From Opitutales bacterium (lineage in GTDB: Bacteria; Verrucomicrobiota; Verrucomicrobiia; Opitutales; PNEW01), in the NCBI GenBank assembly GCA_965219535.1, contig CBDCNV010000001.1:270001-302000 (forward strand): DNA of 32,000 nucleotides, in the 5' to 3' direction. Positions 6,704-28,359 of the stretch are shown here, one piece after another (the first letter of the stretch is position 1; each line of letters begins with the position of its first letter). The position numbers and the translations under genes were made by a program. The notes under the pieces are model-generated. The model did no database searches. It was not told where the DNA came from and saw only the letters and a program-made list of their open reading frames with translations.

Positions 6704-6719
6704 GAAAGCAATTGTAGTT

Positions 6720-6763
6720 CGATGCAGGTGTGGATGCGTGTAGAAGGAAATGAAATAATGGAG
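6720..6763 (+). repeat. Second, shorter copy of the 8-nt periodic element
   Basis: cgatgcag gtgtggat gcgtgtag aaggaaat gaaataat ggag. Shares the exact 15-mer AATGAAATAATGGAG (6749-6763) with 4808-4822. Confidence 0.5.
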
Positions 6764-6802
6764 GGACGTGCTCCGTCGCGTCCGCGGAACGGGACGAGGA
6801 CG
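6764..6802. terminator. GC-rich hairpin cluster between convergent genes (candidate bidirectional terminator)
   Basis: GGACG (6764-6768, 6792-6796, 6798-6802) can pair alternatively with CGTCC (6779-6783). There is an 8-bp palindrome TCCGCGGA at 6781-6788. On the minus strand the structure is followed by a T-rich run (CTCCATTATTTCATTT). No strong canonical U-tract. Confidence 0.3.
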
Positions 6803-6806
6803 AAGA

Positions 6807-7769: not shown

Positions 7770-7789
7770 CGATGTCTCAACACTTCACC

Positions 7790-8554: not shown

Positions 8555-8580
8555 AAGTTTTAATAGAATTAACGTTTTAT

Positions 8581-9111: not shown

Positions 9112-9278
9112 TTTATGATCCCTTTCTTTAATATTTAGATTAATTAATAAATACCTCTAATTAAATTATTCCATAAAGTGAAAAATTAATGGGGGTTTTT
9201 TTCAATAGGATTCATATTATAGGTAAATATGCCCTTGGATTAAATAAGTTGATTACAACAAGCGAATCCGCGGTGTCT

Positions 9279-10253: not shown

Positions 10254-10267
10254 CTGACGGATTCAGG

Positions 10268-11308: not shown

Positions 11309-11336
11309 GATGGTGCTTATCGAAATTTAAAATGAA

Positions 11337-12083
11337 CTACATTGTGGTATATCCACCATCAGCAACCATCACTGATCCGGTAACAAAGGATGCTTCATCG
11401 CTGGCGAGGAAAAGCACGGCGCGTGCCACCTCGATTGGTTCCGCGAAACGCTTTTGCACATTTAAGTTGTAATAGGGCTCAAGTTTTTCTTTGGGAATGC
11501 CCTGGATTAAAGGGGTATTCATCGATCCCGGGCAAATGGCATTAACGCGAATATTGTCGGGGGCGTGGTCGATGGCCATGGATCGCACCAGCCCGATGAC
11601 ACCGTGTTTACTCGCGTTATAAGATGCCTGCATGCCATTGCCTACTAATCCCGAAAGAGATGATACACAAATAATATTACCGCCGCCGTTTTTTTTCATC
11701 TGGGGGATCGCATATTTTGAGCAGAAAAACATGCTCTTTAAATTTGTGTCGAGGACAAAGTCCCACTCATCTTCGGTTGTCTCGACAATGTTCTTATTGA
11801 CTTGAACACCGACGTTATTGACAAGGATATCCAGTCTTCCGAACTGCTTCCTGGCCACGTGAACCATATTTTCTGCATCCACTTCTTTTTGCACGTCTGA
11901 ATGGATAAATGTTGCTTCACCTGTAGTTTCATGAATTTTCGCGGCCGTTTCCTCTCCTGCTTTTTGATTTATATCAGCAACAATGATCTTCGCCCCTTCT
12001 GAAGCGAAGAGAATGGCCAACGATTCACCTAACCCCATCCCGGCCCCGGTAATAATGGCAACTTTGTCTATTAGGCGCTTCAT
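11337..12083 (-). CDS. Short-chain dehydrogenase/reductase (classical SDR)
   Basis: 248 aa. ITGAGMGLGE (TGxxxGxG), NNVG, and catalytic S...YNASKHG (YxxxK). Confidence 0.9.
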   Translation of the reverse strand: MKRLIDKVAIITGAGMGLGESLAILFASEGAKIIVADINQKAGEETAAKIHETTGEATFIHSDVQKEVDAENMVHVARKQFGRLDILVNNVGVQVNKNIVETTEDEWDFVLDTNLKSMFFCSKYAIPQMKKNGGGNIICVSSLSGLVGNGMQASYNASKHGVIGLVRSMAIDHAPDNIRVNAICPGSMNTPLIQGIPKEKLEPYYNLNVQKRFAEPIEVARAVLFLASDEASFVTGSVMVADGGYTTM

Positions 12084-12488: not shown

Positions 12489-13649
12489 ATGAAAGACAAT
12501 ACGCTGCGTTTAGTCGTATTATTATTGATGAGTTGTTTGCCCCCTATTACGGGGGCGCTTGTGATTCCTGCTTTGCCAAAAATCCTGAATTCTTTTGAGG
12601 GTGAAGCGCATGCCGAATTGTTAGTCAGATTATTTTTAACCATGCCTTACCTTTTTACGGCGATTGGTGCACCGCTTGCGGGATTTATCATCGACCGATT
12701 TGGGCGTAAGCGATTACTTATCGGATCCGTTTTACTTTTTGGATTGAGCGGTACTACAGGTTGTTATCTGGATTCACTTTACATGCTGATTGCGGGAAGA
12801 GCAATTCTTGGATTGGCCGTGGGGGGGATCAGTACTGCGTGCATAGCCTTGATCGCGGATTACTATGAAAGCGAAAAACGTCAAAAAATCATAGGTATGC
12901 AGGTTTCCTGTATGAGCTTTTTCACGATGATATTTTTAGTTTTGGGTGGAGCACTGGCTGATTTCAGCTGGCGATATTCATTTTACTTATATGGCATCGC
13001 GTTTTTTTTCTTACCGGTGAGCTATTATTTCATTACCGAACCCCGTCGGGGAAAAACTCATGAAGTCAGTGAAAGTATACCTGTTAACGAGTTATTCCCC
13101 TATATAAAGATCATTTCTATCTATGGCCTGACTTTTATAATAACAGCGGCTTCATTCCTCACAGGGATTTTATTTCCCTTCTTTGCCGAGGAGTTATCAG
13201 TGACGAGTAGTACGCAATTAGGACTGTCAATGGCTTTGTCTACGCTTTGTATTACAATAGTTGCTTCACGTTATGGAATGATTAAAAGCAGATTCAGCTT
13301 TATCGGAATCATAACCGCTTCTATTTACTTAACTTCTCTCGGATTTATTGTCCTCTACTTATCGACAAATTTTACACTGGCGATCTTAGGATTGCTTTTT
13401 ATGTCGATTGGAATGGCGCTATTTTTACCAAACATTAACCTCTGGGTGAATACGGTATCACCGGAAGCTTATCGCGGCAGAGCGATTGGAGGTCTCACGA
13501 CCTGTCATTTTTTAGGAAGATTTTTTTCACCGTTTATCGCTCAACCGTTAACCGATCAATTTGGTCTATCTACAACATTCGGGATTGTAAGTGGATTTTT
13601 ATTAATTTTCGGCACTGTAATTTACTTTGTCAGTTTGCGCATCCGCTAA
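12489..13649 (+). CDS. Major facilitator superfamily transporter, substrate unknown
   Basis: 386 aa and highly hydrophobic, with about 12 predicted helices. MFS loop motif GFIIDRFGRKRLL between TM2 and TM3. Confidence 0.8.
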   Translation: MKDNTLRLVVLLLMSCLPPITGALVIPALPKILNSFEGEAHAELLVRLFLTMPYLFTAIGAPLAGFIIDRFGRKRLLIGSVLLFGLSGTTGCYLDSLYMLIAGRAILGLAVGGISTACIALIADYYESEKRQKIIGMQVSCMSFFTMIFLVLGGALADFSWRYSFYLYGIAFFFLPVSYYFITEPRRGKTHEVSESIPVNELFPYIKIISIYGLTFIITAASFLTGILFPFFAEELSVTSSTQLGLSMALSTLCITIVASRYGMIKSRFSFIGIITASIYLTSLGFIVLYLSTNFTLAILGLLFMSIGMALFLPNINLWVNTVSPEAYRGRAIGGLTTCHFLGRFFSPFIAQPLTDQFGLSTTFGIVSGFLLIFGTVIYFVSLRIR

Positions 13650-13760
13650 ACGAAGTGGCTTCATTCTTTTAGAAATGAACATTGGTCTTGCGCAGTTTAG
13701 CGACCGGAGGTATTATAAGAGAACCTTTAGGATATAAAGTTATAGCTCATTTTTTGAATC

Positions 13761-14537
13761 ATGATGTGGAGATTATTTGGCACTCTTTTTTTCGGAACGC
13801 TCCTTGGGTTTAGTCCACTGGAGGTGTTCGCTCGTAATTGGACAACGGCTGACGGTAAAACGCTGGACGCGGAAATCGTCAGTTACAAGGGGGGTATACT
13901 CATCCTGAAAAAAGATGAAGGGGGAAAAGTTCTCTATTCGATAAAACAGTTGTCGCCTGAAGACCAGGCTTACGTACGTGCAAAATTTCCTGACGGAGAC
14001 AAGAAACCGACAGTTTCTCGTAAACCGTTAAATCCCCAACCGGTCAAACCGAAGGTCACAACCCCGGTGAGAAAAACCCAGCTTCCAAAAGAGAATCCGA
14101 TACCTTCAAGACTGCTCAATTACAAACCAGGAGATATCGCGCCTAATGTCGGTGGAGTGATCTATGGCACTCCGGATTCAATCACTTTATCACAACTTCG
14201 GGGTAAGCTTGTGCTGGTCGATTTCTGGGCTACCTGGTGTCCCCCCTGTCAAAAAGACATGCCTCAAGTAGTACAAATTTATAATCGCTATAAAAACAAA
14301 GGTTTTGAAATTATCGGTGTAAGCCTGGATAAAAATTACAGCGCCCTTAAAAAGTTCAAGGACCAGTACGGAATGACCTGGCCCATGGCACAGGACAAGT
14401 TCAAAATGATAAGTAAAAAATGGGGAGTTGAGACGATACCTACGATGGTACTAATTGACCAGAATGGGGTCATTATTTCCGATCGCCTTTATTCCCGAAA
14501 TCTCGAATCTTATATTCGAAAGCACCTCGGGTTATAA
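13761..14537 (+). CDS. Secreted TlpA-like thiol:disulfide oxidoreductase with an N-terminal SHD1-like domain
   Basis: 258 aa. Signal peptide (..LGFSPLEVFA). SHD1-like pattern RNWTTADGKTLDAEIVSYKGGILILKKDEGGKVLYSIKQLSPEDQAYV. Pro/Lys-rich linker. Thioredoxin fold with VDFWATWCPPCQ. Confidence 0.8.
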   Translation: MMWRLFGTLFFGTLLGFSPLEVFARNWTTADGKTLDAEIVSYKGGILILKKDEGGKVLYSIKQLSPEDQAYVRAKFPDGDKKPTVSRKPLNPQPVKPKVTTPVRKTQLPKENPIPSRLLNYKPGDIAPNVGGVIYGTPDSITLSQLRGKLVLVDFWATWCPPCQKDMPQVVQIYNRYKNKGFEIIGVSLDKNYSALKKFKDQYGMTWPMAQDKFKMISKKWGVETIPTMVLIDQNGVIISDRLYSRNLESYIRKHLGL

Positions 14538-14544
14538 GGAGATA

Positions 14545-15183
14545 TTAATTGGCAAAGGCAGCACGAATATCGCGAACTGCCGCCGCGGTATCCTGAGCGC
14601 ATAGCACATCGGAGACGACAACAACGCGTACTGCCCCTGCATCCTTTATTTCTCCGAGATTATCGCGGGTGATGCCGCCAATACTAAATAAGGGAAGATC
14701 TGTTTTCAGCCGCGATACCGTCCGTAGCAGGTTCAATCCAACGGGGTTATATTCTGGTTTAGTCATTGTAGCGAAGACAGGTCCAATACAGAAGTAGTTG
14801 AGAATATTACGGTGGGAGATTGCATTTTCGGCTTGCTCTAAGGAGTGTGAAGAGAGCCCAAGGAGACGATCAGTTCCCATTCGCTTTCGCGCTTCCAGGG
14901 GGGATGTATCCTCTGGCCCAATATGTAATCCTAAATTTGGGTATTTCAAAGCAAGTTCAAGATCGTCGTTAATGACCAGTCTTTCCAATTTATTCTTAAA
15001 GAGAGGCAGAATATTTTCCAGAAGTTGAATGCGTTCATCGTGGGATTCTTTTTTCGCGCGTAGCTGTACAATGTCCGCTCCACCATCAAGTAGTGCCTGG
15101 CATTTTTCTACCCATTGATCGGATTTTACATAGGCGGTATCGAGAATACCATAAAACCGAGCGTGTTGTGGATCATAGGACAT
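14545..15183 (-). CDS. thiE: Thiamine-phosphate synthase
   Basis: The family signature starts at MSYDPQHARFYGILDT..., followed by GADIVQLRAKK and ..PLFSIGGI. I chose the ATG at complement 15181-15183. The track start at 15276 adds 31 non-conserved residues. Confidence 0.85.
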   Translation of the reverse strand: MSYDPQHARFYGILDTAYVKSDQWVEKCQALLDGGADIVQLRAKKESHDERIQLLENILPLFKNKLERLVINDDLELALKYPNLGLHIGPEDTSPLEARKRMGTDRLLGLSSHSLEQAENAISHRNILNYFCIGPVFATMTKPEYNPVGLNLLRTVSRLKTDLPLFSIGGITRDNLGEIKDAGAVRVVVVSDVLCAQDTAAAVRDIRAAFAN

Positions 15184-15315
15184 GAGGGTAATTATTTTCA
15201 GATACAATCTTCGTTTACCAAATCCAACGCAAATTAAGATTCGTGTATAGCGATTTAATTCGCTTAAAAATCTCAATGAAGAAAAAGAGACGCTTCTTCG
15301 AAAACAGAAACAATA

Positions 15316-15819
15316 TTAATTTTCCGATTTAGTCCCGAGATCTGAAAGCTCCTGTGAATACTCGCTTTCGATTGATTCAGTGTCTGGAGGAGGGGTGGAA
15401 GATTCAGCATTGCCTATAAATCCGGTGACAATGACATTAATTTCTCCCAAATTTTCGATCCCCAGAATTTCACCTAAAGCATGGTTGAGCCTGTCCTGCA
15501 AATCTGAAGTTACATCACCAAGTTTAGAACCGGCCATCATTTGAATGCGAACTTCAATTTTCAATGTCCCGCCGCGGGTTTTTATGCGGGTTGAACATTT
15601 TCCAACTGTATCTGTTTGATCACATATTCGCTGGGCCAATTCACTGATCGCCGATCGTGTGATCATGATCTTACCGGATGTACTTTTAAAAGCAGTGAAA
15701 GATCGCGGCTGTCGCCGCGTCAAGAGCCACAAAATAAGAAGGAGGAAGAAAACGGCTACTCCGACCCAAAGGTAAGGTATATCGGGCAGGGATTCGAGGA
15801 CTTTATTAATGTATTCCAA
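15316..15819 (-). CDS. Membrane-anchored Asp23-related protein (AmaP-like)
   Basis: 167 aa. A single N-terminal TM (YLWVGVAVFFLLLILWLL) is followed by an Asp23-like segment (ITRSAISELAQRICDQTDTVGK...LKIEVRI) and an acidic tail. Lies directly downstream of an Asp23 gene. Confidence 0.5.
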   Translation of the reverse strand: MEYINKVLESLPDIPYLWVGVAVFFLLLILWLLTRRQPRSFTAFKSTSGKIMITRSAISELAQRICDQTDTVGKCSTRIKTRGGTLKIEVRIQMMAGSKLGDVTSDLQDRLNHALGEILGIENLGEINVIVTGFIGNAESSTPPPDTESIESEYSQELSDLGTKSEN

Positions 15820-15854
15820 AGGTATTTATCCGGTTTTTATCTTAAATGAATTTA

Positions 15855-16328
15855 TCAGTCAGTATGTTCAGGTTCAACCCAATTTTTTTTCTCATCTTCC
15901 GAGGTCGATACAGGTGTCTTTACACCATCAATGATGACATCAACTTTAGCGACATCTTTATTTGTCATTTTACTGACTTGGTCGCGCACTGAAGTTTGAA
16001 TTTCATAAGCGGTCCTGGCGAGCTCGATTCCAAAAGAGAGAATGACACGAATCATGATTTCGTAGTGACCATTTTCATTTTCATCGACCCGAATCCCAGC
16101 TCCCGAATCTTTTTTTGAGAACATTCCCGCGAGTTCATCGACAAAGCCACCGGCAACCATGACGACACCCGGAACTTCAAGAGCGGCAAGTTTTACGATA
16201 CTTGCAATCACGGTATGGTTTATTTTAATTTCACCCATCGAGGACGACTCTTCATTAATTGTGGGAATATCACGAATCTCTACCGGTTTTTCCAATTCAT
16301 TATTATTCTTAATTTTTTTCTTACTCAT
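15855..16328 (-). CDS. Asp23/Gls24 (DUF322) family envelope-stress protein
   Basis: 157 aa. INHTVIASIVKLAALEVPGVVMVAGG ... YEIMIRVILSFG ... VDVIIDGV is the typical Asp23 family pattern. Starts 5 nt after the accC stop. Confidence 0.8.
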   Translation of the reverse strand: MSKKKIKNNNELEKPVEIRDIPTINEESSSMGEIKINHTVIASIVKLAALEVPGVVMVAGGFVDELAGMFSKKDSGAGIRVDENENGHYEIMIRVILSFGIELARTAYEIQTSVRDQVSKMTNKDVAKVDVIIDGVKTPVSTSEDEKKNWVEPEHTD

Positions 16329-16333
16329 TGGTC

Positions 16334-17710
16334 CTAATGGGTTTTATTGTTAAAAAAGTCTTTGGGTTTACCGTTGAGGAACTCATCGATGAAATTGGTA
16401 GTAGCACCCACTCGACGAAATACGGGATCATTAACTACTGCCATATTGAAAGGGATGGTAGTTTTTACACCGCGAATAATATATTCGCTAAGCGCGCGAT
16501 GCATCCGGTCGAGAGCTAGATCGCGTGTTCGCCCAGTGGTGATAAGTTTACCAATCATACTGTCATAATCAGGAGGGATAAAATAACCGCCATAGATGTG
16601 AGTGTCAACTCGCACTCCGTGACCGCCAGGTTGGTAATAAAGGGTAATTTCACCGGGACTGGGCGCAAAATTGCGATCCGGATCTTCTGCACAAATTCTG
16701 CTTTCGATGGCATGTCGATTGATTTTAATGTCCCGTTGATCAAATGCCAGGGGTTCGCCTGCGGCAATCAGGATTTGCTCTTTTATCAAGTCTATTCCCG
16801 TGACTTCTTCCGTGACCCCATGTTCAACCTGGATGCGAGTATTCATTTCGATAAAGTAATAATTACCGTCTTTATCGACAAGAAATTCGATCGTCCCCGC
16901 GTTTACATAATCGCAGGCTTCAGCCGCGCGGACAGCATAACGGCCCATCTTTTTACGCAGATCGGGTGTGAGAAAAGGAGAGGGTGCTTCCTCAATCAGT
17001 TTTTGATACCTCCTTTGAACCGAGCAGTCACGTTCTCCCAGATGTAAGGTCTTTCCTTGTTTATCGGCAATGACCTGAAACTCGATATGTCTTGGATTAG
17101 ATATATACTTTTCGACGTAAACAGCACCATTATCAAAGGCTTTCTCGGCTTCTAACTGGGCAGTATCAAATTCCTTGGAGAAAGTCATAGCGTTATGCGC
17201 TAAGCGCATACCTTTTCCGCCACCGCCAGCGACAGCTTTTATAATTACGGGAAAACCAATTTTTTGGGCAACCTTAAGAGCCTCCGCTTTGGATTCGAGA
17301 GTCCCTTCACTTCCAGGGATTACTGGAATACGAGACTTTCTGATCGTATAGCGGGCAATAGATTTATCACCCATCTTACGTATGACATCGGATGGGGGTC
17401 CGATAAAATTAATATTACAGCTTTCACATTGTTCCGCAAATTCCGCTTTTTCCGCAAGGAAACCATAACCCGGGTGAATAGCGTCTACATCGGCAATTTC
17501 TGCCGCGCTGATTATACGGTCAGATTTAAGATAACTCTCCGCACTTTTAGCGGGCCCGATACAAATGGCACCATCTGCCAACTGTACATGTAAAGATTGT
17601 TCATCAGCCTCAGAATAAACTGCAACCGTTTTAATGCCGAGCTCTTTGCACGCACGAATAATTCGCAGTGCAATCTCGCCGCGATTAGCGATGAGAATTT
17701 TTTCAAACAT
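16334..17710 (-). CDS. accC: Acetyl-CoA carboxylase, biotin carboxylase subunit
   Basis: 458 aa. [26 protein letters not shown]..., an ATP-grasp region with GGGGKGMR, and [10 protein letters not shown]. Confidence 0.95.
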
Positions 17711-17720
17711 GATTTAATAC

Positions 17721-18197
17721 TCAGGCTTTTTTTAATTTAAAAATTGGCTGTCCGTAATCAACAGTCGCTCCATTTTCCACGAGTATCTCAACAATCTTTC
17801 CCTCCATCTCCGCCTGAATTTCATTCATCACCTTCATCGTTTCGACAATACACACTACTGTTTCAGTATTCACTTCAGCTCCTACCTCGATAAAGGGTGG
17901 ACTATCTGGAGTGGGTGAACGATAGAATGTTCCCACCATCGGTGAATTTATAGAGGCAAGGGTTTTATCTTCTTGAGGTTCTGAAATTTCTTGAGGGTGC
18001 CGAGGATCGACTGCTTCTTGTCCCCACGGAGGGAAGGTCGCGGGGAAAGGCGAGTGAGTAGCGGTAGTAAAGATCTGAGGGGTGTCGCCATTCTTGCGGC
18101 GAATACGAATCTTCAATCCCTCTTCTTCGACCTCAAATTCAGTGAGATCAGATCTTTTCATTAATTCTACAATTTGTTTTATAAGTTTAAAGTCCAA
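17721..18197 (-). CDS. accB: Acetyl-CoA carboxylase, biotin carboxyl carrier protein
   Basis: 158 aa. Pro-rich linker. Biotinyl domain with a VETMKVMNEI (MKM-type) attachment motif. Lies upstream of accC. Confidence 0.9.
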   Translation of the reverse strand: MDFKLIKQIVELMKRSDLTEFEVEEEGLKIRIRRKNGDTPQIFTTATHSPFPATFPPWGQEAVDPRHPQEISEPQEDKTLASINSPMVGTFYRSPTPDSPPFIEVGAEVNTETVVCIVETMKVMNEIQAEMEGKIVEILVENGATVDYGQPIFKLKKA

Positions 18198-18402
18198 GGC
18201 TTGTGTTCGTTTAATTTAATCGATGGATAGATTTAAAAAGTTGGGGATTAGAAAGAATTTAGCCTTTTGAGGCAATCACTTAATTTTTAATCAGTTTTAG
18301 TGTGCAAACTATATAAAAAATCGAAACACAAACTCAAAAGCTATTGCTTAAACCAGTAGTGTTGCTGCCCGTGCTGAGAAGTGTAATAAATATTCAGATC
18401 CT

Positions 18403-21186
18403 TCACTGAGGTAATTCTACCCCATCAAGCTGGTAGAGCGGTGTGGGTTCTTCAAGCGCTTTTCGTGGATCAAGTGCAAATCGCCATTGAGGTTCTGCGA
18501 GGGTGCCTCGTAATCGTAATTGTAGAGCCTGGCCGAGGGGGAAAAAAGGGATACCGATGATATTAATGAAAGGATTTTCTTTATTTTCCAGATAAGAAAC
18601 AAAAACGCGAAAATCGAGATCTTTATTTGGCAAAATGATATTGCCGTCTGCACGGACGATGCTATAAGGTCCGGTAAAGGTTATTTTTGGGAAATGAATT
18701 AGTTTTCGATCGAGGATAAAATCACCGCCGGCTGTTTCAAGACCAAGCGGGGTAAATCCCAAAATAGTGCTTCCAAATAGACGGGAGAGAAGTCCAACAA
18801 TTTTAAATTTCCCCAGTTCAGCTTTAGTAATACTGAACCAACCCTCACCTTCGAAACTGAGTAGATCTCCCGGAACTCCTACCGCGTTAAGATAGACATC
18901 GAGTTTGCCCGTGACTAAATCGCTGAGGTAATTTTTATTACCATTTATTTGAGACTTTAAATACTTCTCTTTATAACCAGTCGTTTCCAGGAAAGGCAAA
19001 TAGAGTGCATCTTTTAGGAGGAGATCGAATTCAATTCTCGGCCCCTCTTTTGTTTTTCGGAAATGCATATTTCCAGAACCTCGACCTCCTCCAATGCCGA
19101 AATCCATGTTATTGATATCGAGGAAATCATCAGTTAGATGCCCCTGAAATGTCATATCGTCAAAAGGATATCCATAAATGGAATGAGGTTGCGTTGCTAC
19201 AGCGTCGAAAGTGATGTCACGTTTAAGCAGTTCATTCTTACCCTGAAGGTGACGCATACCGAAATAGTGTATTCTAGGCGCCGAGCTAAAGCTGAAATTG
19301 TCCATAATCGCAGCGACATCTTTCCCGAGAAGAGGGCTCAGTTCAGGAATTGAGAAGTGCGTCTCAATGTCGAAATGATAAGTTCTTGTTTTTAAGAGAT
19401 CGAGGGCAAAAAACATATCTATGGATCCAGCGGCGTTCCCTTCATTGCGTTTGGATTCTATATTAAACATTCGCACGTAGCCGGGGTATGCCCAGATATT
19501 GGCGCTACCGCTCTGCAATAGAAGTCCTTTGTATTCTAAATTTTCAGCTTTTAGCTCACCGTAGAACTGACGTTTCAATTTATCATTCCAATAACCACGA
19601 TAGTCCATGTCTGTGTACATATACTCTTCGTGAAATTTGTATTTAATCCACATCTCGGGCCACCAGGGCTGCATCACGCTGTTAAAATCAGAGGGGAGAA
19701 TGGTCCCGTTGAGGAGCATCCGAAAATCGCTCTCGATAAGATTTTGTTTATAGGACCCCGAGATTCGATACTCATTGTTTTCAAGAACAGCATTGTCGAT
19801 GAAAAGGTAAGGGGGAAAAAATGATCCATCGGCAGTTATTCGATCAATCGCTATGTCTCTAAAAGTGAGCTGGGAGGCATCCAGGGTGTAATCCAGATGA
19901 TCGAGCTTAAACCCTTCATTCAGTACAGCCTTGATCCCAATACGAGGAGGTTCATTAAAAGATAGATCTTTTATCAGTGATGATTCATTTAACAGGGGGT
20001 GAAGTGTAAGGTCATCTATATTGATCCAAGAGTTGATATCTAAGTTTGAAGTCTTTTTCTCGATATCAACGGTTCCGCTAACCTTTAACGGGGCTCCGTT
20101 CAGGTGGGTTAGAACATTACCGCTGACGAGGGGAAATTGTTGAGGATAAATGTCTGCCACGAGATTTTCAGTGAGAAGATCATCGTGCCAAACTTTATCT
20201 GCTGCCAGGAGTATTTCGTTAGGAATTTTAATCTGCTTGGGATGAAGTGAATTGAGATTAAACTTTGCTTTCAAATTCTCTGCCCGCGTCATATTCAACC
20301 AGGAAATTGAATCTGTTTCGACAGTAACCAGTCCACGAGGATCCAACTGGAAGTAATCGACATCGGTTATTTTTAACCGAATCTGTCCCAGTTGGATAAT
20401 ATCGTTAAAGTTAGCATGGCGCGCGATTAATTCGAGATCAGCGCTAGGCATACCCTTGTCATCAGTGTGCAGGGTAACGTTTAAAGTTGGCGATTTAAAT
20501 TCTCGAAAAATAGAGTTCAACATGATGATTTTACTGCACAGAAAATAATAGCGGTCCAAGATTAATTCAGGTAGTACAGTATTCTCTTCAAATAGCGGCA
20601 GAGGTTCAGTTGAATCCCATCTTTTTGGTGGCGGTTTCCAGCTGCCTTCCGCTTCCACTTGAAGATTGTGCAGATGATAATTTAATTGATTCATTTGCCA
20701 GCGAGATCCCTTCAGTTGCAGGTTGCAATTCAGTCTCTCGATGACGGGTTCATTCACTCCGCTGGCTGAATACAATGCCGGTAAATACAAGGTAGTATGG
20801 CTTAGTCGTAGCGTATTAATGTGAAGCTGACCAAGCATGAGCGAAGATAATTGAAAGCTGAAATGCGCAGCTTCGCTGCTGACTAAAAGTTCATCATTTT
20901 CGATCAGGGCTATTTTCAAATTGCGAACAAAGACTTTACCCGTGAGGTCGACATAAAACTCGCCGGTTTGGGAATAAACACCGATTTCAGCAAACTCACT
21001 TTCAATTTTCTTAAATAGAAAACGAGGAACGGGTAACTCACGGTTAAAATATGAGAAGACCAGAATTGCACACTGAATGAGAGCAATGATGATTAGTAGA
21101 TACGTAATACAAGACTGACAGACCTTCCAAGCGCCCGTGAGCCCGCCCTTCATCCGGGATTCGGCTTTTTCGCCAATCATTTTCAA
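18403..21186 (-). CDS. Large bitopic envelope protein, AsmA/TamB-like (function unknown)
   Basis: 927 aa. A single N-terminal hydrophobic helix (ITYLLIIIALIQCAILVFSYF) is followed by a long beta-rich region without catalytic motifs. The C-terminal ...LQLRLRGTLAEPQWRFALDP resembles the AsmA-family C-terminal motif, from memory. It is the last gene of the ABC operon. Confidence 0.45.
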   Translation of the reverse strand: MKMIGEKAESRMKGGLTGAWKVCQSCITYLLIIIALIQCAILVFSYFNRELPVPRFLFKKIESEFAEIGVYSQTGEFYVDLTGKVFVRNLKIALIENDELLVSSEAAHFSFQLSSLMLGQLHINTLRLSHTTLYLPALYSASGVNEPVIERLNCNLQLKGSRWQMNQLNYHLHNLQVEAEGSWKPPPKRWDSTEPLPLFEENTVLPELILDRYYFLCSKIIMLNSIFREFKSPTLNVTLHTDDKGMPSADLELIARHANFNDIIQLGQIRLKITDVDYFQLDPRGLVTVETDSISWLNMTRAENLKAKFNLNSLHPKQIKIPNEILLAADKVWHDDLLTENLVADIYPQQFPLVSGNVLTHLNGAPLKVSGTVDIEKKTSNLDINSWINIDDLTLHPLLNESSLIKDLSFNEPPRIGIKAVLNEGFKLDHLDYTLDASQLTFRDIAIDRITADGSFFPPYLFIDNAVLENNEYRISGSYKQNLIESDFRMLLNGTILPSDFNSVMQPWWPEMWIKYKFHEEYMYTDMDYRGYWNDKLKRQFYGELKAENLEYKGLLLQSGSANIWAYPGYVRMFNIESKRNEGNAAGSIDMFFALDLLKTRTYHFDIETHFSIPELSPLLGKDVAAIMDNFSFSSAPRIHYFGMRHLQGKNELLKRDITFDAVATQPHSIYGYPFDDMTFQGHLTDDFLDINNMDFGIGGGRGSGNMHFRKTKEGPRIEFDLLLKDALYLPFLETTGYKEKYLKSQINGNKNYLSDLVTGKLDVYLNAVGVPGDLLSFEGEGWFSITKAELGKFKIVGLLSRLFGSTILGFTPLGLETAGGDFILDRKLIHFPKITFTGPYSIVRADGNIILPNKDLDFRVFVSYLENKENPFINIIGIPFFPLGQALQLRLRGTLAEPQWRFALDPRKALEEPTPLYQLDGVELPQ

Positions 21187-21206
21187 CGGGTTCAGCTAAA
21201 TACCGG

Positions 21207-23174
21207 TTATTGTTTTTGCTCCTCCAAGGCCGGTTGTGGAGGAACAATAATTGACGAATCGGATGATTCCATAGGTGCGGTTTCACTCTCGCCCTGCTCA
21301 GTTGAAGGAGGAAGTGGCTCTTCGGCTAAACCTTTATCATCCGGGGATTTTTGTTCAAAGGTCAGTTCAAATAGTGAATCAATCAGATTTTGATTGATAG
21401 AAAAAACTACATCAGCATCGGGTGATCCACCAATTTGTGTTGTTCCACCTAAACGCTCACTGAAAGAAAAAGTGCGGTTCTGCATCCGATCTTCGTTGCC
21501 GCCCGGTAAATGGATTTCGACATCCAAACGAAATATCCATGGAAATTCCTTATCTCCCAGTTCAAATCGACTACTGAATTCGTTGCGTATATATTCCTTA
21601 ACTTCAAATTTTCTCACCGTATCTATTAACGCTAATATAGCTTTCTGTTTTTTCTCCGGGTATTCTTTGAGCACTGACGACCAGGATTCATTAGAAAGAT
21701 CGATTTCTTTATCGAAGATCATGGTTTCATTTACTGAATCAGTAAGGGAAATTCTTTGCACGCGCGCCCCTTGCGGCAACTCTTCAAGGACCCTTAAGCG
21801 ATAGTATAACGCCCGCGTTTTAAGCAGGTGGAGGATGTCTTTTTTAATCTTATAAATAGTGGGAGAATCAGTCATCTTGGCGAAGAGTAATTCTGATTCC
21901 GGATCCAGATCGCCTATGAGAAGAGTTGTTTTATCTTGAGTCTGGAGTACGACTCGGCGCTGTGGATCATTAAAACCATATTTTTCGAGATCCGCGGCGG
22001 AGGGTGCATCACTAATGAACTGAACAGCTTCCATTTCATGAAGTGCGCTGATAACTTCGTTCAGCAATTGAGGGTCCGCGGTCCAGGTTGAGAGATCACC
22101 TGTATTGTTTGACTGCAGGACCTGCCAGGTTCCGGTTTCAAGTTTTTGCAGTTCGACGGAAGTATTGGACATCACTATTTCAATCGAGGTGAGCGCCGAA
22201 GGATTGATATCGACAAAACTTTTATTCCTTAGACTTTCTTGAACATCACGCAGGTCATTAATGGGTGCGGCAGCGAGAGTAAAGACAGTCGGGTTGCCTT
22301 CCATTCTTGCGAAATAAATTTTTCGCTCATCTTCTGTCAGCTCTTCACCAACGAGAAGTGTCTGTCTTCGATTATTACCTTCCAGCGTAATACGCAGGGA
22401 AGGATTAGCTGAAATCTCCTGAGCGCGGTCGGTTTCTTGAAAATCGATTACCTTAAGTCCGGTCAGACGGTTGATCGTGTTCATAACGCGCTGGGAATCG
22501 GCTTCGGTTTGAATGGGCGATTCAAAAATCCAATTTTTGTCATTGCGGGTGAGGCGAACCTTGAGGTTACTCGGATCCGTAATCTGTATACTGATCGAGC
22601 GTACTTCAAAGAGGGGAATATCGAATATGTTTTGACTGCGCAGATTCTGAAGGTCGACGGTGATACTTTGAAGTAACTCGCGATTTACAACATAGACCTC
22701 TTCCTCAGCCGGGGAGAGAATGTAGAGGCGTTTACCAATTTCCGTCGATTCACCAATTTTCAGTTCCTTTTTCTTGTCGCCGTGACTGAGTGAGAGGATA
22801 GCTTTTGGGTCCTCTAAACCATAATCTGCCAGGCTCCTCCCCGCTTTTTTGATTTCACTAACAGAAAAACGAGTCTCCCATTCGAGAAATTTAAGCTGAT
22901 TTACCATCCGGCTCACGGCATAAATGTTTGCCGGCCAGTTTATCGGACTGTCGAGGAACCATTGATCCATTTTGCGTACCAAGACCCAATTTTGTGTCAG
23001 CTCCCGCCCTTCAATCTCGAGGCGATCGCTATCTTCTACAAATCCGGGTGGATATACTAATCGCTTAGCACGTTCAAATGCCCCAATCGTCGCAGCTTGC
23101 TTTTCAAGATAAAATATCAAGCTAAATAAGCCGAGATTGAGAATGACTAATAATATCGTAAATTTATACCGCAT
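21207..23174 (-). CDS. DUF4340-like membrane-anchored periplasmic protein
   Basis: 655 aa. N-terminal TM (FTILLVILNLGLFSLIFYL). W-x-L-x-x-P pattern (QWFLDSPINWPANIYAVSRMVNQL). Classic position immediately after a GldG-like gene. Acidic/Pro-rich C-terminal tail. Confidence 0.55.
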   Translation of the reverse strand: MRYKFTILLVILNLGLFSLIFYLEKQAATIGAFERAKRLVYPPGFVEDSDRLEIEGRELTQNWVLVRKMDQWFLDSPINWPANIYAVSRMVNQLKFLEWETRFSVSEIKKAGRSLADYGLEDPKAILSLSHGDKKKELKIGESTEIGKRLYILSPAEEEVYVVNRELLQSITVDLQNLRSQNIFDIPLFEVRSISIQITDPSNLKVRLTRNDKNWIFESPIQTEADSQRVMNTINRLTGLKVIDFQETDRAQEISANPSLRITLEGNNRRQTLLVGEELTEDERKIYFARMEGNPTVFTLAAAPINDLRDVQESLRNKSFVDINPSALTSIEIVMSNTSVELQKLETGTWQVLQSNNTGDLSTWTADPQLLNEVISALHEMEAVQFISDAPSAADLEKYGFNDPQRRVVLQTQDKTTLLIGDLDPESELLFAKMTDSPTIYKIKKDILHLLKTRALYYRLRVLEELPQGARVQRISLTDSVNETMIFDKEIDLSNESWSSVLKEYPEKKQKAILALIDTVRKFEVKEYIRNEFSSRFELGDKEFPWIFRLDVEIHLPGGNEDRMQNRTFSFSERLGGTTQIGGSPDADVVFSINQNLIDSLFELTFEQKSPDDKGLAEEPLPPSTEQGESETAPMESSDSSIIVPPQPALEEQKQ

Positions 23175-23213
23175 AAAACAAATAGGACTTCAATTAACGA
23201 TCCAGGTTCTGAA

Positions 23214-24689
23214 TTAATTTTTTCGAATCCAGTAAATCATTAATCCACAGATGGCGACCGCGCCCGGTAAACTCAAAAGCACGAGGCTGAGCTGAGTTAA
23301 TTCTTGTCTGCTGAGCAGGAGATGGAATTCTTCAATAGGTCTTGGTTGAATGGCGAGCAATTGTTCACGATCCAGGCACCAGTTGATAGTATTGAGGATA
23401 AGCATAATATTTCCAATCGATCCAATCCGATGATTGGAAATAATATCGGTATTGCCGAAGACCACCAAGCGTCCACCTTTAACATCGATACCCAAACTTG
23501 AGGATACTCTTTTTTCTGATATAGCGGCCAGACTTACTTGTCCTTTCAAGTCCACCTCGGGATTATATTTAAGATTCTGGTTATCGCGATATGAGCGTTC
23601 AGCCCAACTTTCTGGAGAACTGCTAATGAGCGGGGTTATGATAAGTCTATCGTCGACGGGGCGGTCGAGGTTGCGTCTTACGGGTCGACTCAAGCCCGCG
23701 ATCACGGGAATAGGATTATCGCGAAGGATATCAGTGATGGGGTGTCCAGCGAAGCGGCGAATGAGAAGATCGCCGCTTGCGGCTTGAAAATCTTCCCCCA
23801 TATCAAGGACCACCATGTCATCGGAAATTATTCCCCATTCGTAAAATAAATCACTTAAGCCATGTTCTATTGCCGGTTCAATTAAAACAATGAGTTTGCC
23901 GGCAGTTTCGGCCAGGTAATTGCGCAACTTTTCTACATCCTGGGGACGGTATGGACCTTGTGGAGAAGCTAAGATCAAGAGGTCTGCATCCTCAGGGATT
24001 TCTTCCGCGCGTGTAATATTTAAAGTCTCGAGTAAAATATTTCCCCACTTAAGTTTCTCAGCGATATTCGATAAACCGCGCAGAGGATCGACACTATCCA
24101 AATGCATTTCGCCATACCCGGAGATGAAGTATACTTTTTGCTGGTCGGTATTGGAAACATCGATCAATGCTGAGGTAAAGGCGCGTTCGCCTTTGAAAGC
24201 GGACATCTTGCCATTTTTCATTTCGATAATATCGGAGTAAATGAGTCGGTGTTGACGATCTTCACAAACCATTAACACCACATCTTGTTGATCTATACCA
24301 TAGGTGCGGGCGAGGTATTCGGCTCGTTTTCTTTCCTTAAGGACGTCGACGACTTCAATTTCAATTTTTTTCTTACCGCCAATGTTGCCCGCGTATTCAT
24401 ATTCTTTAAGCAAGTTTCGCACATGTTTAAAGACTTGCTTCATTTCACCATCGATGGCGTCGGGCGATAGGGTAACGATAATCTTAATCGGTTTGTCGAT
24501 TTGACGGATATAAGCAAGCGATTCCGGTGAAAGAGAATAAATATGGTCGCGGGTGAGATCAGAACGCCAGTAGAGATTATTGGCGAAATAGTTTAGACCT
24601 ATGATAAAGCTGATGCAGAGGCAAATTTGCACTAACTGGTTAATGCTCTTTATCCAGTTAACATATTTAAAATTTTCAACAGCGGCCAT
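23214..24689 (-). CDS. GldG-like ABC transporter auxiliary component
   Basis: 491 aa. N-terminal and C-terminal TM helices flank a large soluble domain. Lies directly downstream of an ABC-2 permease, as for gldF-gldG. Confidence 0.7.
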   Translation of the reverse strand: MAAVENFKYVNWIKSINQLVQICLCISFIIGLNYFANNLYWRSDLTRDHIYSLSPESLAYIRQIDKPIKIIVTLSPDAIDGEMKQVFKHVRNLLKEYEYAGNIGGKKKIEIEVVDVLKERKRAEYLARTYGIDQQDVVLMVCEDRQHRLIYSDIIEMKNGKMSAFKGERAFTSALIDVSNTDQQKVYFISGYGEMHLDSVDPLRGLSNIAEKLKWGNILLETLNITRAEEIPEDADLLILASPQGPYRPQDVEKLRNYLAETAGKLIVLIEPAIEHGLSDLFYEWGIISDDMVVLDMGEDFQAASGDLLIRRFAGHPITDILRDNPIPVIAGLSRPVRRNLDRPVDDRLIITPLISSSPESWAERSYRDNQNLKYNPEVDLKGQVSLAAISEKRVSSSLGIDVKGGRLVVFGNTDIISNHRIGSIGNIMLILNTINWCLDREQLLAIQPRPIEEFHLLLSRQELTQLSLVLLSLPGAVAICGLMIYWIRKN

Positions 24690-24702
24690 TAGGAAAGTGG
24701 AG

Positions 24703-25458
24703 TCAGACTTTGGATTCAGTGATGAGCACGGATATTCCGAGAACCAAAGTCGTGTAGCTGAAATAGAAAACTATATGCCTGGTGTCAATTACCCCGCGGC
24801 TGAAATCTTCAAGATGTTTAAAATTGTTAAAATACTCCAATGCTCCTTCTAACCATTCAAACCAACCGATGCTCTGGGTTTTAACCGCGGGCACACCTAA
24901 TATAATAATAAAAAGAATACTAAAACATAACATTCCTGCTACAAGCTGGCTACGCGTCAGGCTGCTGGAAAAAATTCCCACCGAAATAAACAACAGTCCG
25001 CTAATCGCCACAAAGATGTATCCACCTAATAAGGTTGCTGGATCAAGCAGCCTCACCGTCATCGCCGATGATCCAATCGTCAGATTTACGAGAAGAGGGA
25101 AACCGAGAGTGAGTAACCAAAGTAAACAGTAGAATAAATAAGCGGCGAGAAACTTACTAAAAATAATCTCCGTAGCCGTAACGGGTGTGGTCATGAGCGT
25201 CTCTAAAGTACCCATTCGCCGCTCTTCAGCTATACTCTTCATCGTCAAGAGTGGGACAATAAAAAAAACGGGAATCCAATAGAGTTGAAAAAAGTATTCA
25301 GAGGGAAGATTGTCGTGGGGTTGTAAGGTAAAATCGGCAAGGATAAGGATATAAATGAATCCCATGAGAAGGAGAAAAATGACACCGGTCACGTAAGTTG
25401 ATGGAGCGATAAATAGCGCTCGCAACTCATGTTTTAATAAGCAGGTAAAATGGTTCAT
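24703..25458 (-). CDS. ABC-2 family transporter permease (GldF-like)
   Basis: 251 aa with about 6 TM helices. Conserved loop SIAEERRMGTLETLMTTPV. ATGA overlap with the upstream ATPase gene. Confidence 0.8.
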   Translation of the reverse strand: MNHFTCLLKHELRALFIAPSTYVTGVIFLLLMGFIYILILADFTLQPHDNLPSEYFFQLYWIPVFFIVPLLTMKSIAEERRMGTLETLMTTPVTATEIIFSKFLAAYLFYCLLWLLTLGFPLLVNLTIGSSAMTVRLLDPATLLGGYIFVAISGLLFISVGIFSSSLTRSQLVAGMLCFSILFIIILGVPAVKTQSIGWFEWLEGALEYFNNFKHLEDFSRGVIDTRHIVFYFSYTTLVLGISVLITESKV

Positions 25459-26495
25459 TCCACTGCGGCCGTTTCTTGATTATTCTTTTTACCGCGATCG
25501 ACCTTGTTATTAGATAAGGGAATATCCTCGTCCCAGCTGCGCCGTGTGGCGGCGAGAAAAATATCTTCAAGGTTGGGCACCTTGCGCCTGAGCTCCCGCA
25601 ATCTGAACTGTGGATGCTCATACAGTCGTGTTAAAATTTCCTCACTCAAGTCACGCGTATGAGGTGTTGTCAGTTCAAGGTCGTAATAATCATCATTTAC
25701 AACGGGGAGCGATGAGCTGATCTCAAGATCGGGGTCAATTTCTCTGAGCAGAGAATCGAGGGCTGAAGTATTTCCCTTCAAATTCAGGGTATAGGTTGTA
25801 GTATTGATAAATTCATTGCGCAAGCTCTCCGATGTCCCACAAGCCACAATGTGTCCCTGGTTAATAATGATTACTCGATCACAGCACAGTTCCACTTCTG
25901 AAAGTATATGGCTCGATATTATGACCGTCATTTTACCGCGCAGATTTTTTATGAGGTCGCGAATCATGAGGACCTGATGTGGATCGAGGCCGATCGTAGG
26001 TTCGTCCATGATGATAACTTCCGGTTCAGATAGAATGGCATCGGCGATACCAACGCGTTGTCGATACCCTTTCGAAAGGGTGGCAATAACTTTACGCCGC
26101 GCTGTTCGGTTTAAATCACACAATTCAAGTGTTTCTTCGACGCGGTCTTTTAATTGTTTGCGTGGGATCTCTTTAAGACGACCTCGATAATATAAGTACT
26201 CAACGACCCGCATATCTTCAGGCAGCGGATTATTTTCTGCCATGTACCCGATGCGCCTTTTTATTTCGTCGGGGTTGCTGGCAATGGGGATACCACATAT
26301 TTTAGCGGAACCTGATTTCGCGGTGATCAACCCGCAGAGGATACGCATGGTCGTACTTTTCCCTGCGCCATTTGGGCCGAGAAATCCTACAATTTCTCCT
26401 TTTTCAACATTGAAAGAGACTTCATGAATGGCCATCACCGGGCCATAATATTTTGTCAGGTTTGTTACTTCTATGCTATGTTCTTGGTTGAGCAT
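25455..26495 (-). CDS. ABC transporter ATP-binding protein (GldA/DrrA-like) with a C-terminal accessory domain
   Basis: 346 aa. Walker A GPNGAGKST, signature LSKGYRQR, Walker B IIIMDEPT, H-loop SSHIL. Confidence 0.9.
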   Translation of the reverse strand: MLNQEHSIEVTNLTKYYGPVMAIHEVSFNVEKGEIVGFLGPNGAGKSTTMRILCGLITAKSGSAKICGIPIASNPDEIKRRIGYMAENNPLPEDMRVVEYLYYRGRLKEIPRKQLKDRVEETLELCDLNRTARRKVIATLSKGYRQRVGIADAILSEPEVIIMDEPTIGLDPHQVLMIRDLIKNLRGKMTVIISSHILSEVELCCDRVIIINQGHIVACGTSESLRNEFINTTTYTLNLKGNTSALDSLLREIDPDLEISSSLPVVNDDYYDLELTTPHTRDLSEEILTRLYEHPQFRLRELRRKVPNLEDIFLAATRRSWDEDIPLSNNKVDRGKKNNQETAAVE

Positions 26496-26572: not shown

Positions 26573-27352
26573 TCAATCTTTTTTACACTCTATAAAAGCT
26601 GCAGCGAGGCCTTGCAACGTAATGTCAGGATTAAATTCTATATCTTTAAGCCACTTTTGCGGTAAAATACCTGCACTTCCTCCGGTTGCGATGATCGTGG
26701 GTTCTGAATGCCCAAGTTGAATTAATTCAGCACGCACACAATCCAATAGTGATTGAATCATGCCCTCGAAGCCTACCACGCAACCTATTTTCATTGCCTC
26801 CACGGTGGTCTTTCCAATTCCGGCGGAGACGATTAATTCTTGCGGGTTGAGTTCGGGGAGCAATGCCGTTTGTTCATGAAGATAGCGAGTGATTACGGTC
26901 AACCCGGGAGCGATGATCCCTCCTTCGTATCCATCTTTTGTAACAATATCAAAATTAACCGTCGTTCCCATATCGATAACAACTGTAGGGACACCGTAGA
27001 GTATCTTGGCCCCAATGGAATTGGCTAACCTATCCTGTCCGATTTCTTGTGGATTCGGGTAATTAATAGGAATAGGACAATTCTCACAAGTCAAATGAAG
27101 GAAAGGAACTTGAGATTGTGTCGTTGATAATATCTTTTCCAACCACTTAGTGGCGGGTGGAACGACAGAGCTAAAAGCAATACCATCAAGTAAATCTCCA
27201 CGCAAATGTGCGTCTGTTAACGCCGTCGATAACTCATTGTCCGCTTCTTCGAGAGAAGGAGTTAAAACACTCGCAGTGTGTTTTGTCTGGTTCTCAATAA
27301 CTAACCCGAACCGGGTAGTAGTATTGCCTATATCGATAGAAAAAATCTTCAT
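26573..27352 (-). CDS. coaX: Type III pantothenate kinase
   Basis: MKIFSIDIGNTTTRFG (DxGNT), ...DMGTTVNFD..., ...ATGGSA. I chose the ATG at complement 27350-27352, which gives an ATGA overlap with the birA stop. The track start at 27364 adds 4 residues. Confidence 0.85.
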   Translation of the reverse strand: MKIFSIDIGNTTTRFGLVIENQTKHTASVLTPSLEEADNELSTALTDAHLRGDLLDGIAFSSVVPPATKWLEKILSTTQSQVPFLHLTCENCPIPINYPNPQEIGQDRLANSIGAKILYGVPTVVIDMGTTVNFDIVTKDGYEGGIIAPGLTVITRYLHEQTALLPELNPQELIVSAGIGKTTVEAMKIGCVVGFEGMIQSLLDCVRAELIQLGHSEPTIIATGGSAGILPQKWLKDIEFNPDITLQGLAAAFIECKKD

Positions 27353-28359
27353 GGGGATAGACAAGATAAAGTTTCAGCGCTGCCCAAACTGACTTCTCCC
27401 GCTCGCAGCACGTGCATTTTATCATGTTCATCTTTCAGAAGCAATGAACCTTCCTCATCAATACCTTCTACCTTCCCGCTTAGAGATGAAGTCTGAGTCT
27501 TTACAGTTACACGTTTTGATTTTAATGCGTTGTAACGGTCCCATAGTTCGAAAAAATCCGCACTATAATTACCAGCGCTAAATTGTTCGTATGCCTTCAC
27601 TCCGGCGATAACAAGGTTTGCGGCAAAATGGTTGATCTGCAGAGGTTTTCCAATTTCAGAAGCCAGCGAGGTAGCGTTGGCCGCAATTTCAGAAGGCCAT
27701 TGCTTGCAGTCGCTGTTCACATTCAGGCCGAGCCCAAAAACAAGATCACGCATTTGATCGGCGTCGACTCTTGCCTCGGTCAAAATACCCGCAACTTTTT
27801 TCTTCTTAAGCACTATATCATTTGGCCATTTTAATTCTACTGGCAATTCGCAGATTCTATTTAACAATTCACAAATGTTAAGTCCCATCCACAAGGTAAA
27901 AGGCTGCATCCGCGCGGGGGGAAGTTGTGGACGAAAGACATAACTCATATAAATATTACCTTCTTCCGGGCTATGCCATTTTCGACCTAACCGCCCGCGT
28001 CCCACTTGCTGTTTAGAGGCCATAATAATAAATGGCACTTCTCTTCCATCGGCCAACTGGCGTTCAGCTTCGGAGTTGGTACTGTCAATCTCGGGGAAAA
28101 AAACAATTTTTGTAGAAGAACTTTCCAACGCGAGGTAGGCGCGTATGAGAGAGGCATTTAATTCCCCGGGTTCACAACTGATACGATAACCGCGATGACG
28201 CACCGCATCAAAGGTAAAACCCTGTTCTCGTAACTTTTCCAGCCGAGCCCAAATGCCGACTCGTGAGATCCCCACTTTTTTTGCCAGAATATTACCGGAA
28301 ATATACTTACCCCGCACTGCAAGCAGGGATTTAAGAATAATGACGTCAGGATCATCCAT
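27349..28359 (-). CDS. birA: Bifunctional biotin-protein ligase / biotin operon repressor (class II BirA with N-terminal HTH)
   Basis: 336 aa. N-terminal winged HTH (ISGNILAKKVGISRVGIWARLEKLREQG). Ligase motif QQVGRGRLGRKWHSP. Confidence 0.9.
   Translation of the reverse strand: MDDPDVIILKSLLAVRGKYISGNILAKKVGISRVGIWARLEKLREQGFTFDAVRHRGYRISCEPGELNASLIRAYLALESSSTKIVFFPEIDSTNSEAERQLADGREVPFIIMASKQQVGRGRLGRKWHSPEEGNIYMSYVFRPQLPPARMQPFTLWMGLNICELLNRICELPVELKWPNDIVLKKKKVAGILTEARVDADQMRDLVFGLGLNVNSDCKQWPSEIAANATSLASEIGKPLQINHFAANLVIAGVKAYEQFSAGNYSADFFELWDRYNALKSKRVTVKTQTSSLSGKVEGIDEEGSLLLKDEHDKMHVLRAGEVSLGSAETLSCLSP

Follow-up and report, generated by a model that had tools for sequence, protein, structure and literature searches.

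An AsmA-like gene follows an ABC/GldG-like/DUF4340 module in a conserved five-gene cluster of Opitutae that may encode a trans-envelope machine

The route by which phospholipid reaches the outer membrane is an open problem, as is what drives or directs flow through AsmA-like bridges. In the Lpt system an ATP-binding cassette (ABC) engine feeds a bridge with a hydrophobic groove (PMC10345924), and TamB and YhdP, both of the AsmA family, transfer glycerophospholipid in vitro (PMC13542527). No ATPase partner goes with the AsmA-like genes of the model organisms. GspN, another AsmA-like protein, serves the type II secretion system by helping lipoproteins to reach the cell surface (PMC12439988), and AlphaFold-multimer prediction places a DUF4340 protein of the SAR11-related HIMB59 in an ABC transporter complex, as one of its subunits (bioRxiv 10.64898/2025.12.11.693642). 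Here we describe a locus at which components of both kinds are encoded together. A 32,000-nucleotide (nt) stretch of DNA from an Opitutales bacterium (contig CBDCNV010000001.1, positions 270,001 to 302,000), termed the window below, carries at 18403-26495 five tightly packed open reading frames (ORFs), all on the minus strand, for an ABC ATPase, an ABC-2 permease, a GldG-like auxiliary protein, a DUF4340 protein and an AsmA-like protein. On sequence evidence the five genes appear to be a single envelope operon, conserved in Opitutae, a class of Verrucomicrobia, co-transcription being predicted from gene order.

The cluster resembles Lpt in that an ABC engine, here putatively of the inner membrane, is encoded with membrane-anchored periplasmic proteins, and the logic of flow along a groove, as proposed below, would be shared (PMC10345924). 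The periplasmic and membrane parts are not homologous: in place of LptF/G there is a permease of ABC-2/GldF-like type; the five proteins lack any Pfam domain of the OstA/LptC beta-jellyroll kind, and hhalign comparison of the DUF4340 and GldG-like profiles with LptA and LptC gives probabilities below 1%; and the putative bridge is one AsmA-like polypeptide, where Lpt has stacked jellyrolls, with no outer-membrane translocon encoded nearby. The match of the cluster ATPase to LptB is generic to ABC ATPases. A further likeness is to the MCE transporters (MlaFEDB-MlaC-MlaA, PqiABC, LetAB), since in Mla an ABC engine is tied to periplasmic lipid-handling proteins that connect both membranes; the cluster differs in having no MlaD/MCE or MlaE Pfam match, and in hhalign probabilities below 1% against MlaC, MlaD and MlaE.

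With YhdP, YdbH(-YnbE), TamB(-TamA) and AsmA of Escherichia coli the fifth product shares a transmembrane anchor at the N-terminus and, behind it, a long periplasmic region rich in beta structure; the C-terminal ~250 residues of its family are also homologous to the C-terminus of YhdP and to AsmA 140-541. YdbH, at 879 amino acids (aa), is also near it in length (925 aa from the favoured start). No ABC transporter is encoded together with any of these genes in E. coli, whereas one is in the window. Conversely, no YnbE-like lipoprotein or TamA-like barrel adjoins the cluster, and likeness to the translocation and assembly module in particular is limited by a TamB match that stays under threshold and by the lack of an Omp85 gene in the neighbourhood.

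The first three products belong to the same families as GldA, GldF and GldG of Flavobacterium, and follow the same order of ATPase, ABC-2 permease and GldG-type auxiliary protein with an ABC_transp_aux domain; the cluster differs by the addition of DUF4340 and AsmA-like genes, and no link to gliding or type IX secretion is seen here. Two further systems were compared by description only. The HIMB59 module likewise has a conserved DUF4340 gene beside ABC components, as a predicted octamer of four homodimers in which its authors propose DUF4340 to be a transporter subunit of a novel kind (AlphaFold-multimer; bioRxiv 10.64898/2025.12.11.693642), but comes from another phylum and has no AsmA-like fifth gene named. 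GspN/PulN is an AsmA-like protein encoded in, and serving, another trans-envelope machine, and extends the family's range of cargo to lipoproteins (PMC12439988); it is small, however, and its operon is that of type II secretion, not an ABC-2/GldG/DUF4340 unit. A literature search brought up no paper joining GldG or DUF4340 to AsmA-like proteins, in keeping with the remark, made in an earlier interpretation of the DNA from its letters alone (the sequence-only reading), that it knew of no description of such a system. The parts are of known families, and the pairing, real and conserved across the class, is one for which we found no description.

The arrangement is no chance feature, because it recurs in 112 of the 112 related loci in which it could be evaluated. 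Part of this total comes from a genome scan, seeded with an Opitutaceae-only sub-clade of the AsmA-like family, a choice that narrows the taxonomic breadth as seen from the AsmA-like side. The scan gave 80 loci, all of Verrucomicrobiota and, where named below phylum, of Opitutaceae or Opitutales; where the upstream DNA reaches far enough, ATPase, permease, GldG-like and DUF4340 genes lie immediately upstream of the AsmA-like gene and on the same strand without exception (73/73). From the other side, metagenomes were scanned with DUF4340 as the seed, which yielded 46 loci, and in all 39 that were evaluable, having ≥500 nt downstream of DUF4340, the AsmA-like gene comes directly next. No insertion or strand switch was found at the DUF4340/AsmA-like junction in the evaluable loci. 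Records naming a lineage below phylum are all of class Opitutae (Opitutales, Puniceicoccales). The PVC origin that the sequence-only reading had supposed is right, every named relative being of Verrucomicrobiota. Loss of co-conservation, which the sequence-only reading had named among the outcomes that would sink its proposal, did not appear in either scan, even though the flanks vary.

Three flank layouts were seen: birA-coaX, the five genes, accBC; birA(-coaX), the five genes, a histidine kinase; and TPR, phosphoglucomutase, the five genes, accBC. Only the five-gene block is constant across them. A 56%-identical relative has synteny identical to that of the window, where nadC-birA-coaX lies upstream and accB-accC-Asp23 downstream, all on the strand of the cluster. 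At the far end of the range stands a lineage (L002) whose AsmA-like protein (P0154) is 17-18% identical to the window protein over full-length alignments: it has the same five genes followed by accB-accC, the DUF4340 stop overlapping the AsmA-like start by 4 nt, and different genes upstream (TPR_21 and phosphoglucomutase, without birA/coaX). Downstream accBC is confined to the lineage of the window (L001, L208-210) and that of L002/L250-252, and is not found in Opitutaceae; of the 104 loci in which downstream DNA suffices to tell, 80, most of them of Opitutaceae, have a gene for a hybrid histidine kinase there instead.

Identity to the Opitutaceae orthologues (L125-L204) declines through the cluster, from a median of 57% for the ATPase to 48% for the permease, 38% for the GldG-like protein, 33.5% for DUF4340 and 22.5% for the AsmA-like protein; the corresponding values for BirA and CoaX are 49% and 47%. 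Evolution is thus fastest in the periplasmic and outermost parts, and a fall in identity from the cytoplasmic to the outermost component is as expected of a single envelope-spanning assembly. Three JGI contigs (L208-L210: Ga0315339_1001077, Ga0114999_10000701 and Ga0114996_10001291) have nadC/birA-coaX, the five genes and accBC as in the window, with 92-93% identity between their DUF4340 proteins and that of the window; the lineage of the window is therefore one of uncultured Opitutae that has been sampled repeatedly in metagenomes.

Within the window the genes are closely spaced (Table 1). The ATPase stop and permease start share an ATGA, read directly in the sequence at 25455-25458, and the remaining intergenic gaps are of 13, 39 and 20 nt. 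The last of these depends on the start assigned to the AsmA-like ORF: a TTG at 21186 gives 927 aa, and an alternative ATG at 21180 gives 925 aa and a gap of 26 nt. The ATG is the more likely true start on sequence grounds, because it is the one used in the gene call of an ENA contig with an identical DUF4340 protein, and because close homologues are 922-925 aa long. A consensus scan of the region found no terminator-like site in the internal gaps; over the region as a whole, promoter-like matches (25 vs 20.8±4.8) and terminator-like matches (12 vs 10.3±3.3) were at chance level. A Kyte-Doolittle hydropathy scan gives six hydrophobic segments for the permease; the GldG-like protein has a hydrophobic helix at each end (18-36 and 467-485), the DUF4340 protein one at residues 5-23, and the AsmA-like protein one at 26-44 and none elsewhere. 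By predicted topology the GldG-like, DUF4340 and AsmA-like proteins are membrane-anchored and periplasmic. Coordinates and hydropathy scan alike agree with the packing, ATGA overlap, gaps and helix layout given by the sequence-only reading, and the terminator that it had considered as a possible divide before the AsmA-like gene has no counterpart in the internal gaps.

Table 1. Genes of the five-gene cluster and features on either side of it, in window coordinates.
Feature	Coordinates	Strand	Length	Position, domains and architecture
ABC transporter ATP-binding subunit, GldA/DrrA-like	25455..26495	-	346 aa	Pfam ABC_tran
ABC-2 type permease, GldF-like	24703..25458	-	251 aa	Pfam ABC2_membrane_2/_4/_3; six hydrophobic segments
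GldG-like auxiliary protein	23214..24689	-	491 aa	DUF7088 and ABC_transp_aux (GIFT-type) between two transmembrane helices
DUF4340 protein	21207..23174	-	655 aa	N-terminal transmembrane anchor, three DUF4340 stretches, C-terminal tail
AsmA-like protein	18403..21186	-	927 aa	N-terminal transmembrane anchor, then long beta-rich periplasmic region
coaX	26573-27364	-		Upstream; Pfam Pan_kinase, E 4e-43
birA	27349-28359	-		Upstream; BPL_LplA_LipB, HTH_11 and BPL_C
accB	17721-18197	-		Downstream; Pfam Biotin_lipoyl
accC	16334-17710	-		Downstream; Biotin_carb_N/CPSase_L_D2/Biotin_carb_C
AT-rich spacer, AsmA-like stop to accB start	18198..18402	-	205 nt	

The transporter part of the cluster is readily assigned. 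The ATPase matches Pfam ABC_tran above the gathering threshold (E 8.8e-30, 104.5 bits), and the permease matches ABC2_membrane_2 (41.2 bits, cutoff 27.2) as well as ABC2_membrane_4 and _3. The GldG-like protein carries ABC_transp_aux (PF09822; E 1.2e-19, 71.1 bits, cutoff 34.7) and DUF7088 (PF23357; E 7.6e-14, 52.2 bits, cutoff 27.8), and the fourth protein matches DUF4340 (PF14238) over three stretches, at E 1.5e-52 and 178.9 bits against a cutoff of 25. The best NCBIfam matches of the three transporter proteins are GldA, GldF and GldG, at scores below the equivalog cutoffs: 285.2 of 402.6 bits for GldA (TIGR03522), 119.4 of 288.5 for GldF (TIGR03518) and 75 of 389.85 for GldG (TIGR03521). 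Judged by these profiles the three are Gld-like, paralogous relatives and not Gld orthologues, because all of them score far under the cutoffs. The family names first proposed from the letters, GldA/F/G-like and DUF4340, are therefore upheld by Pfam, and Gld orthology is not.

Sequence searches of the PDB found no relatives for any of three products, namely permease, GldG-like protein and DUF4340 protein. Set against MlaC/MlaD/MlaE, LptA/LptC, AsmA, YhdP and TamB, the DUF4340, GldG-like and permease profiles give hhalign probabilities below 1% throughout, and at this level a kinship of DUF4340 or the GldG-like protein with the lipid-handling proteins of Lpt or Mla is ruled out. DUF4340 is rarely named in the literature searched, and no experimentally established function for it was found there; a paper on essentiality in Verrucomicrobium spinosum flags a single DUF4340 gene as having an 'essential domain'. 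Two of the proteins have C-terminal tails: the ATPase continues in a Lys/Asn-rich tail of ~30 aa (25455-25550) beyond the usual GldA/DrrA length, and in the DUF4340 protein the last ~45 aa are acidic, Pro/Ser-rich and of low complexity (21207-21350; …KSPDDKGLAEEPLPPSTEQGESETAPMESSDSS…EEQKQ). A plasmid search with the GldG-like protein returned one unannotated match.

The fifth protein is recognisable at the level of its family. Taken alone, the window protein has a sub-threshold Pfam TamB match (E 0.014, 15.1 bits, cutoff 22.4), no threshold match to the Pfam AsmA clan (AsmA, AsmA_2, YhdP, TamB, DUF748) and no NCBIfam match. Exhaustive profile searching gathers 771 representatives at E ≤ 1e-3, ~900-950 aa long, mostly as full-length matches and with ~20% identity within the family; an indexed protein search, run with the single sequence or with alignments of 51 or 6 sequences, returns 4-7 relatives, although the seed alignments include cluster representatives of the very collection searched. 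Low counts from a word-indexed search do not mean rarity for fast-evolving families such as this one. In 51 diverse members Pfam gives matches below threshold to YhdP 26 times (best E 3.6e-9), AsmA six times, DUF748 three times and TamB once, the YhdP matches pairing the C-terminal ~250 residues of the members with positions ~960-1200 of the 1224-position model.

Comparison by hhalign with E. coli proteins, taken from MG1655 as single-sequence templates, points the same way. The matches to YhdP lie within residues 961-1257: the family profile aligns with 1004-1257 at a probability of 79.6% (E 1.5e-5), and a C-terminal sub-alignment reaches 90.2% (E 1.5e-6). For AsmA the probabilities are 71.7-75.8%, the highest being for AsmA 140-541; at the N-terminus, residues 22-133 of the family pair in register with AsmA 4-115, though weakly (33%, E 4.5e-4). 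Against TamB they are only 0.7-4.7%. Two distant full-length relatives (P0155 and P0156) match the N-termini of Pfam AsmA, YhdP and DUF748. In NCBI and UniProt members are labelled 'AsmA-like C-terminal region/domain-containing protein', e.g. WP_220623408.1 of Ruficoccus sp. ZRK36 and AWT60718.1 of Candidatus Moanabacter tarae. We accept the fifth protein as AsmA-like, a remote homologue of AsmA and YhdP, at family level and by sequence comparison. The AsmA label of the sequence-only reading thus stands, on remote homology of the family and on names already in use; among the profile comparisons that it had foreseen, GldG/ABC_transp_aux and DUF4340 exceed their thresholds, whereas the AsmA clan is reached by the family as a remote match and not by the window protein at threshold.

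PDB sequence searches with the family profiles returned nothing relevant. AlphaFold2, run with an eight-sequence alignment, gave models of low confidence: the full-length model has a predicted local distance difference test score of 53.7, and a model limited to the C-terminal 391 residues one of 67.2. In both, runs of long antiparallel strands are interspersed with helices. The predicted strands are more amphipathic than shuffled ones (hydrophobic/polar alternation of 2.27 vs 1.59±0.21).

We propose that the five products are a single trans-envelope machine working like Lpt, a reading to which we give about an even chance (roughly 0.5). The ABC-2 exporter would sit in the inner membrane, where ATP hydrolysis by the ABC dimer would pull a lipidic or lipid-anchored cargo out of the bilayer; the GldG-like and DUF4340 proteins would serve as a periplasmic adaptor, and a hydrophobic groove in the AsmA-like protein would carry the acyl chains of the cargo towards the outer membrane, ATP-driven loading setting the direction of flow. 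Candidate cargoes are phospholipid, another glycolipid or a lipoprotein. That the system is an ATP-powered AsmA-like lipid bridge, in which the exporter loads lipid through the adaptors for one-way bulk flow, doing for phospholipid or some other lipid of the membrane what Lpt does for its own cargo, is a tentative idea, less likely than not to hold; we found no description of a machine of this kind.

Several observations weigh against a single machine. The coupling rests on gene order, and the groove fold of the AsmA-like protein is a putative one; the window protein passes no curated family threshold; neither the cluster nor its immediate neighbourhood encodes an outer-membrane partner; and the loci that show the linkage all belong to a single class. 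A different account is that a self-contained exporter and a passive AsmA-family bridge, of the kind proposed for YhdP and YdbH, are held together by inherited neighbourhood, and the restriction to one class favours it, as do the following. birA and coaX, functionally unrelated, are also syntenic upstream in most loci, so that part of the conservation is probably due to the inertia of gene order in general; the estimated gap between DUF4340 and AsmA-like genes, with a median of ~35 nt, is not clearly tighter than the 45-62 nt between birA/coaX and the ATPase; distant relatives of ~820 aa (L004 502-2976, L254 591-3047), which match the family profile at E ~1e-36 to 1e-42 and the N-termini of Pfam AsmA/YhdP/DUF748, lie away from the ABC/GldG/DUF4340 module, the gene upstream of that in L004 ending in a PriA C-terminal domain; and the four-gene module with DUF4340 in the SAR11-related genome is predicted to be a complete complex, no AsmA-like gene being named with it (bioRxiv 10.64898/2025.12.11.693642). 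This account sits less easily with the replacement of both flanks among lineages, through which the DUF4340/AsmA-like junction has nonetheless stayed intact in all evaluable loci, at ~20% identity of the AsmA-like proteins, with neither insertion nor strand switch in any locus and with stop and start overlapping by 4 nt in the L002 lineage. We regard it as a real possibility, if not one that we would expect to prevail.

Other departures concern what the AsmA-like protein is or does. Export of polysaccharides and of other products that are not lipids is common among ABC-2 permeases, and sugar-related ideas have been attached to the 'GIFT' domain of GldG/IFT52. Since the sole Pfam match of the window protein on its own is to TamB (E 0.014), the protein could have a TamB-like, non-conduit role in outer-membrane protein assembly or as a scaffold, beside an exporter of, for example, polysaccharide, the operon merely grouping functions in envelope biogenesis. 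The family as a whole, however, is like YhdP and AsmA and unlike E. coli TamB, no TamA/Omp85 gene is adjacent, and AsmA-family members tested so far transfer glycerophospholipids (PMC13542527) or assist lipoproteins (PMC12439988), all of which makes such a role unlikely. It could also be that the protein is no true AsmA groove protein, its resemblance arising from the composition of amphipathic strands in a lineage-specific beta-rich transporter subunit. All Pfam matches are under gathering thresholds, ten members scanned individually all falling short (YhdP at most 34 bits of the 46 needed); hhalign probabilities are 72-90%, not >95%, against single-sequence templates; and Foldseek with the low-confidence models recovered from the PDB generic beta-barrels only, at template-modelling scores <0.25, and no AsmA-like structure. 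Compositional likeness is nevertheless hard to square with collinear matches that are specific to region, C-termini pairing with C-termini and N-termini with N-termini, that recur in half of the diverse members scanned, and that control profiles do not produce (probability <1%). NCBI and UniProt curators chose the same label independently, and the architecture of an N-terminal anchor and ~900 residues of long strands broken by helices fits the family. We therefore see little chance that the AsmA assignment is mistaken.

If an ATP-powered bridge is indeed what the cluster encodes, it would provide a natural example of energised, directed transport of the AsmA/BLTP type, and a first function for the widespread GldG/DUF4340 ABC modules. 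The proposed link between AsmA-like protein and ABC transporter is open to genetic tests, since carriers are in culture (Nibricoccus sp. IMCC34717, Cephaloticoccus primus CAG34, Opitutaceae bacterium EW11 and Ruficoccus sp. ZRK36), and the operon gives a way into two families that are widespread but uncharacterised, DUF4340 and the auxiliary proteins of GldG-type ABC modules. Should the coupling not be real, the annotation of a class-wide, highly divergent AsmA-like family in Opitutae would still be of use.

Outside the cluster, the sequence-only reading had seen a lipid theme in the placing of the operon between coaX/birA and accBC. These neighbours are indeed those of the window operon; the theme is weakened by the replacement of accBC with the histidine kinase in most relatives (80/104). 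This kinase, of ~1,270-1,320 aa and encoded on the same strand 50-250 nt past the AsmA-like gene (e.g. L128 ~13010-16940, L165 ~12950-16900, L202 ~12790-16590), has an N-terminus that spans the membrane several times, and contains PAS domains together with the motifs 'SHEIRTPMN' (HisKA) and 'DLVLMDLQMPEMDG' (receiver). A role in regulating the cluster is possible, but the kinase might also have nothing to do with it. A conserved outer-membrane partner was sought at this downstream position in relatives and not found, the kinase being there instead.

In the window the spacer between the AsmA-like gene and accB carries a sigma-70-like TTGAGT-18-TATAGT at 18337-18308, and no terminator-like hairpin, ORF >21 aa or Rfam match was found in it; the ORF and Rfam scans leave no candidate there for a YnbE-like small lipoprotein or an RNA element. 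It is likely to be the 3' boundary of the five-gene unit and is probably the accBC promoter region. Downstream of accC, again on the minus strand, an Asp23-family ('cell envelope-related') protein and a 167-aa ORF without Pfam match are encoded (15316-15819 and 15855-16328), followed by thiE (TMP-TENI). In the rest of the window nothing mobile or anomalous was seen, GC content being 0.40-0.50 throughout. Two xylose-isomerase-like TIM-barrel proteins, a GFO/IDH/MocA oxidoreductase, an SDR protein, a 2-hydroxyacid dehydrogenase and a PhyH dioxygenase are encoded at 2797-12083, which looks like a sugar or inositol-type catabolic neighbourhood.

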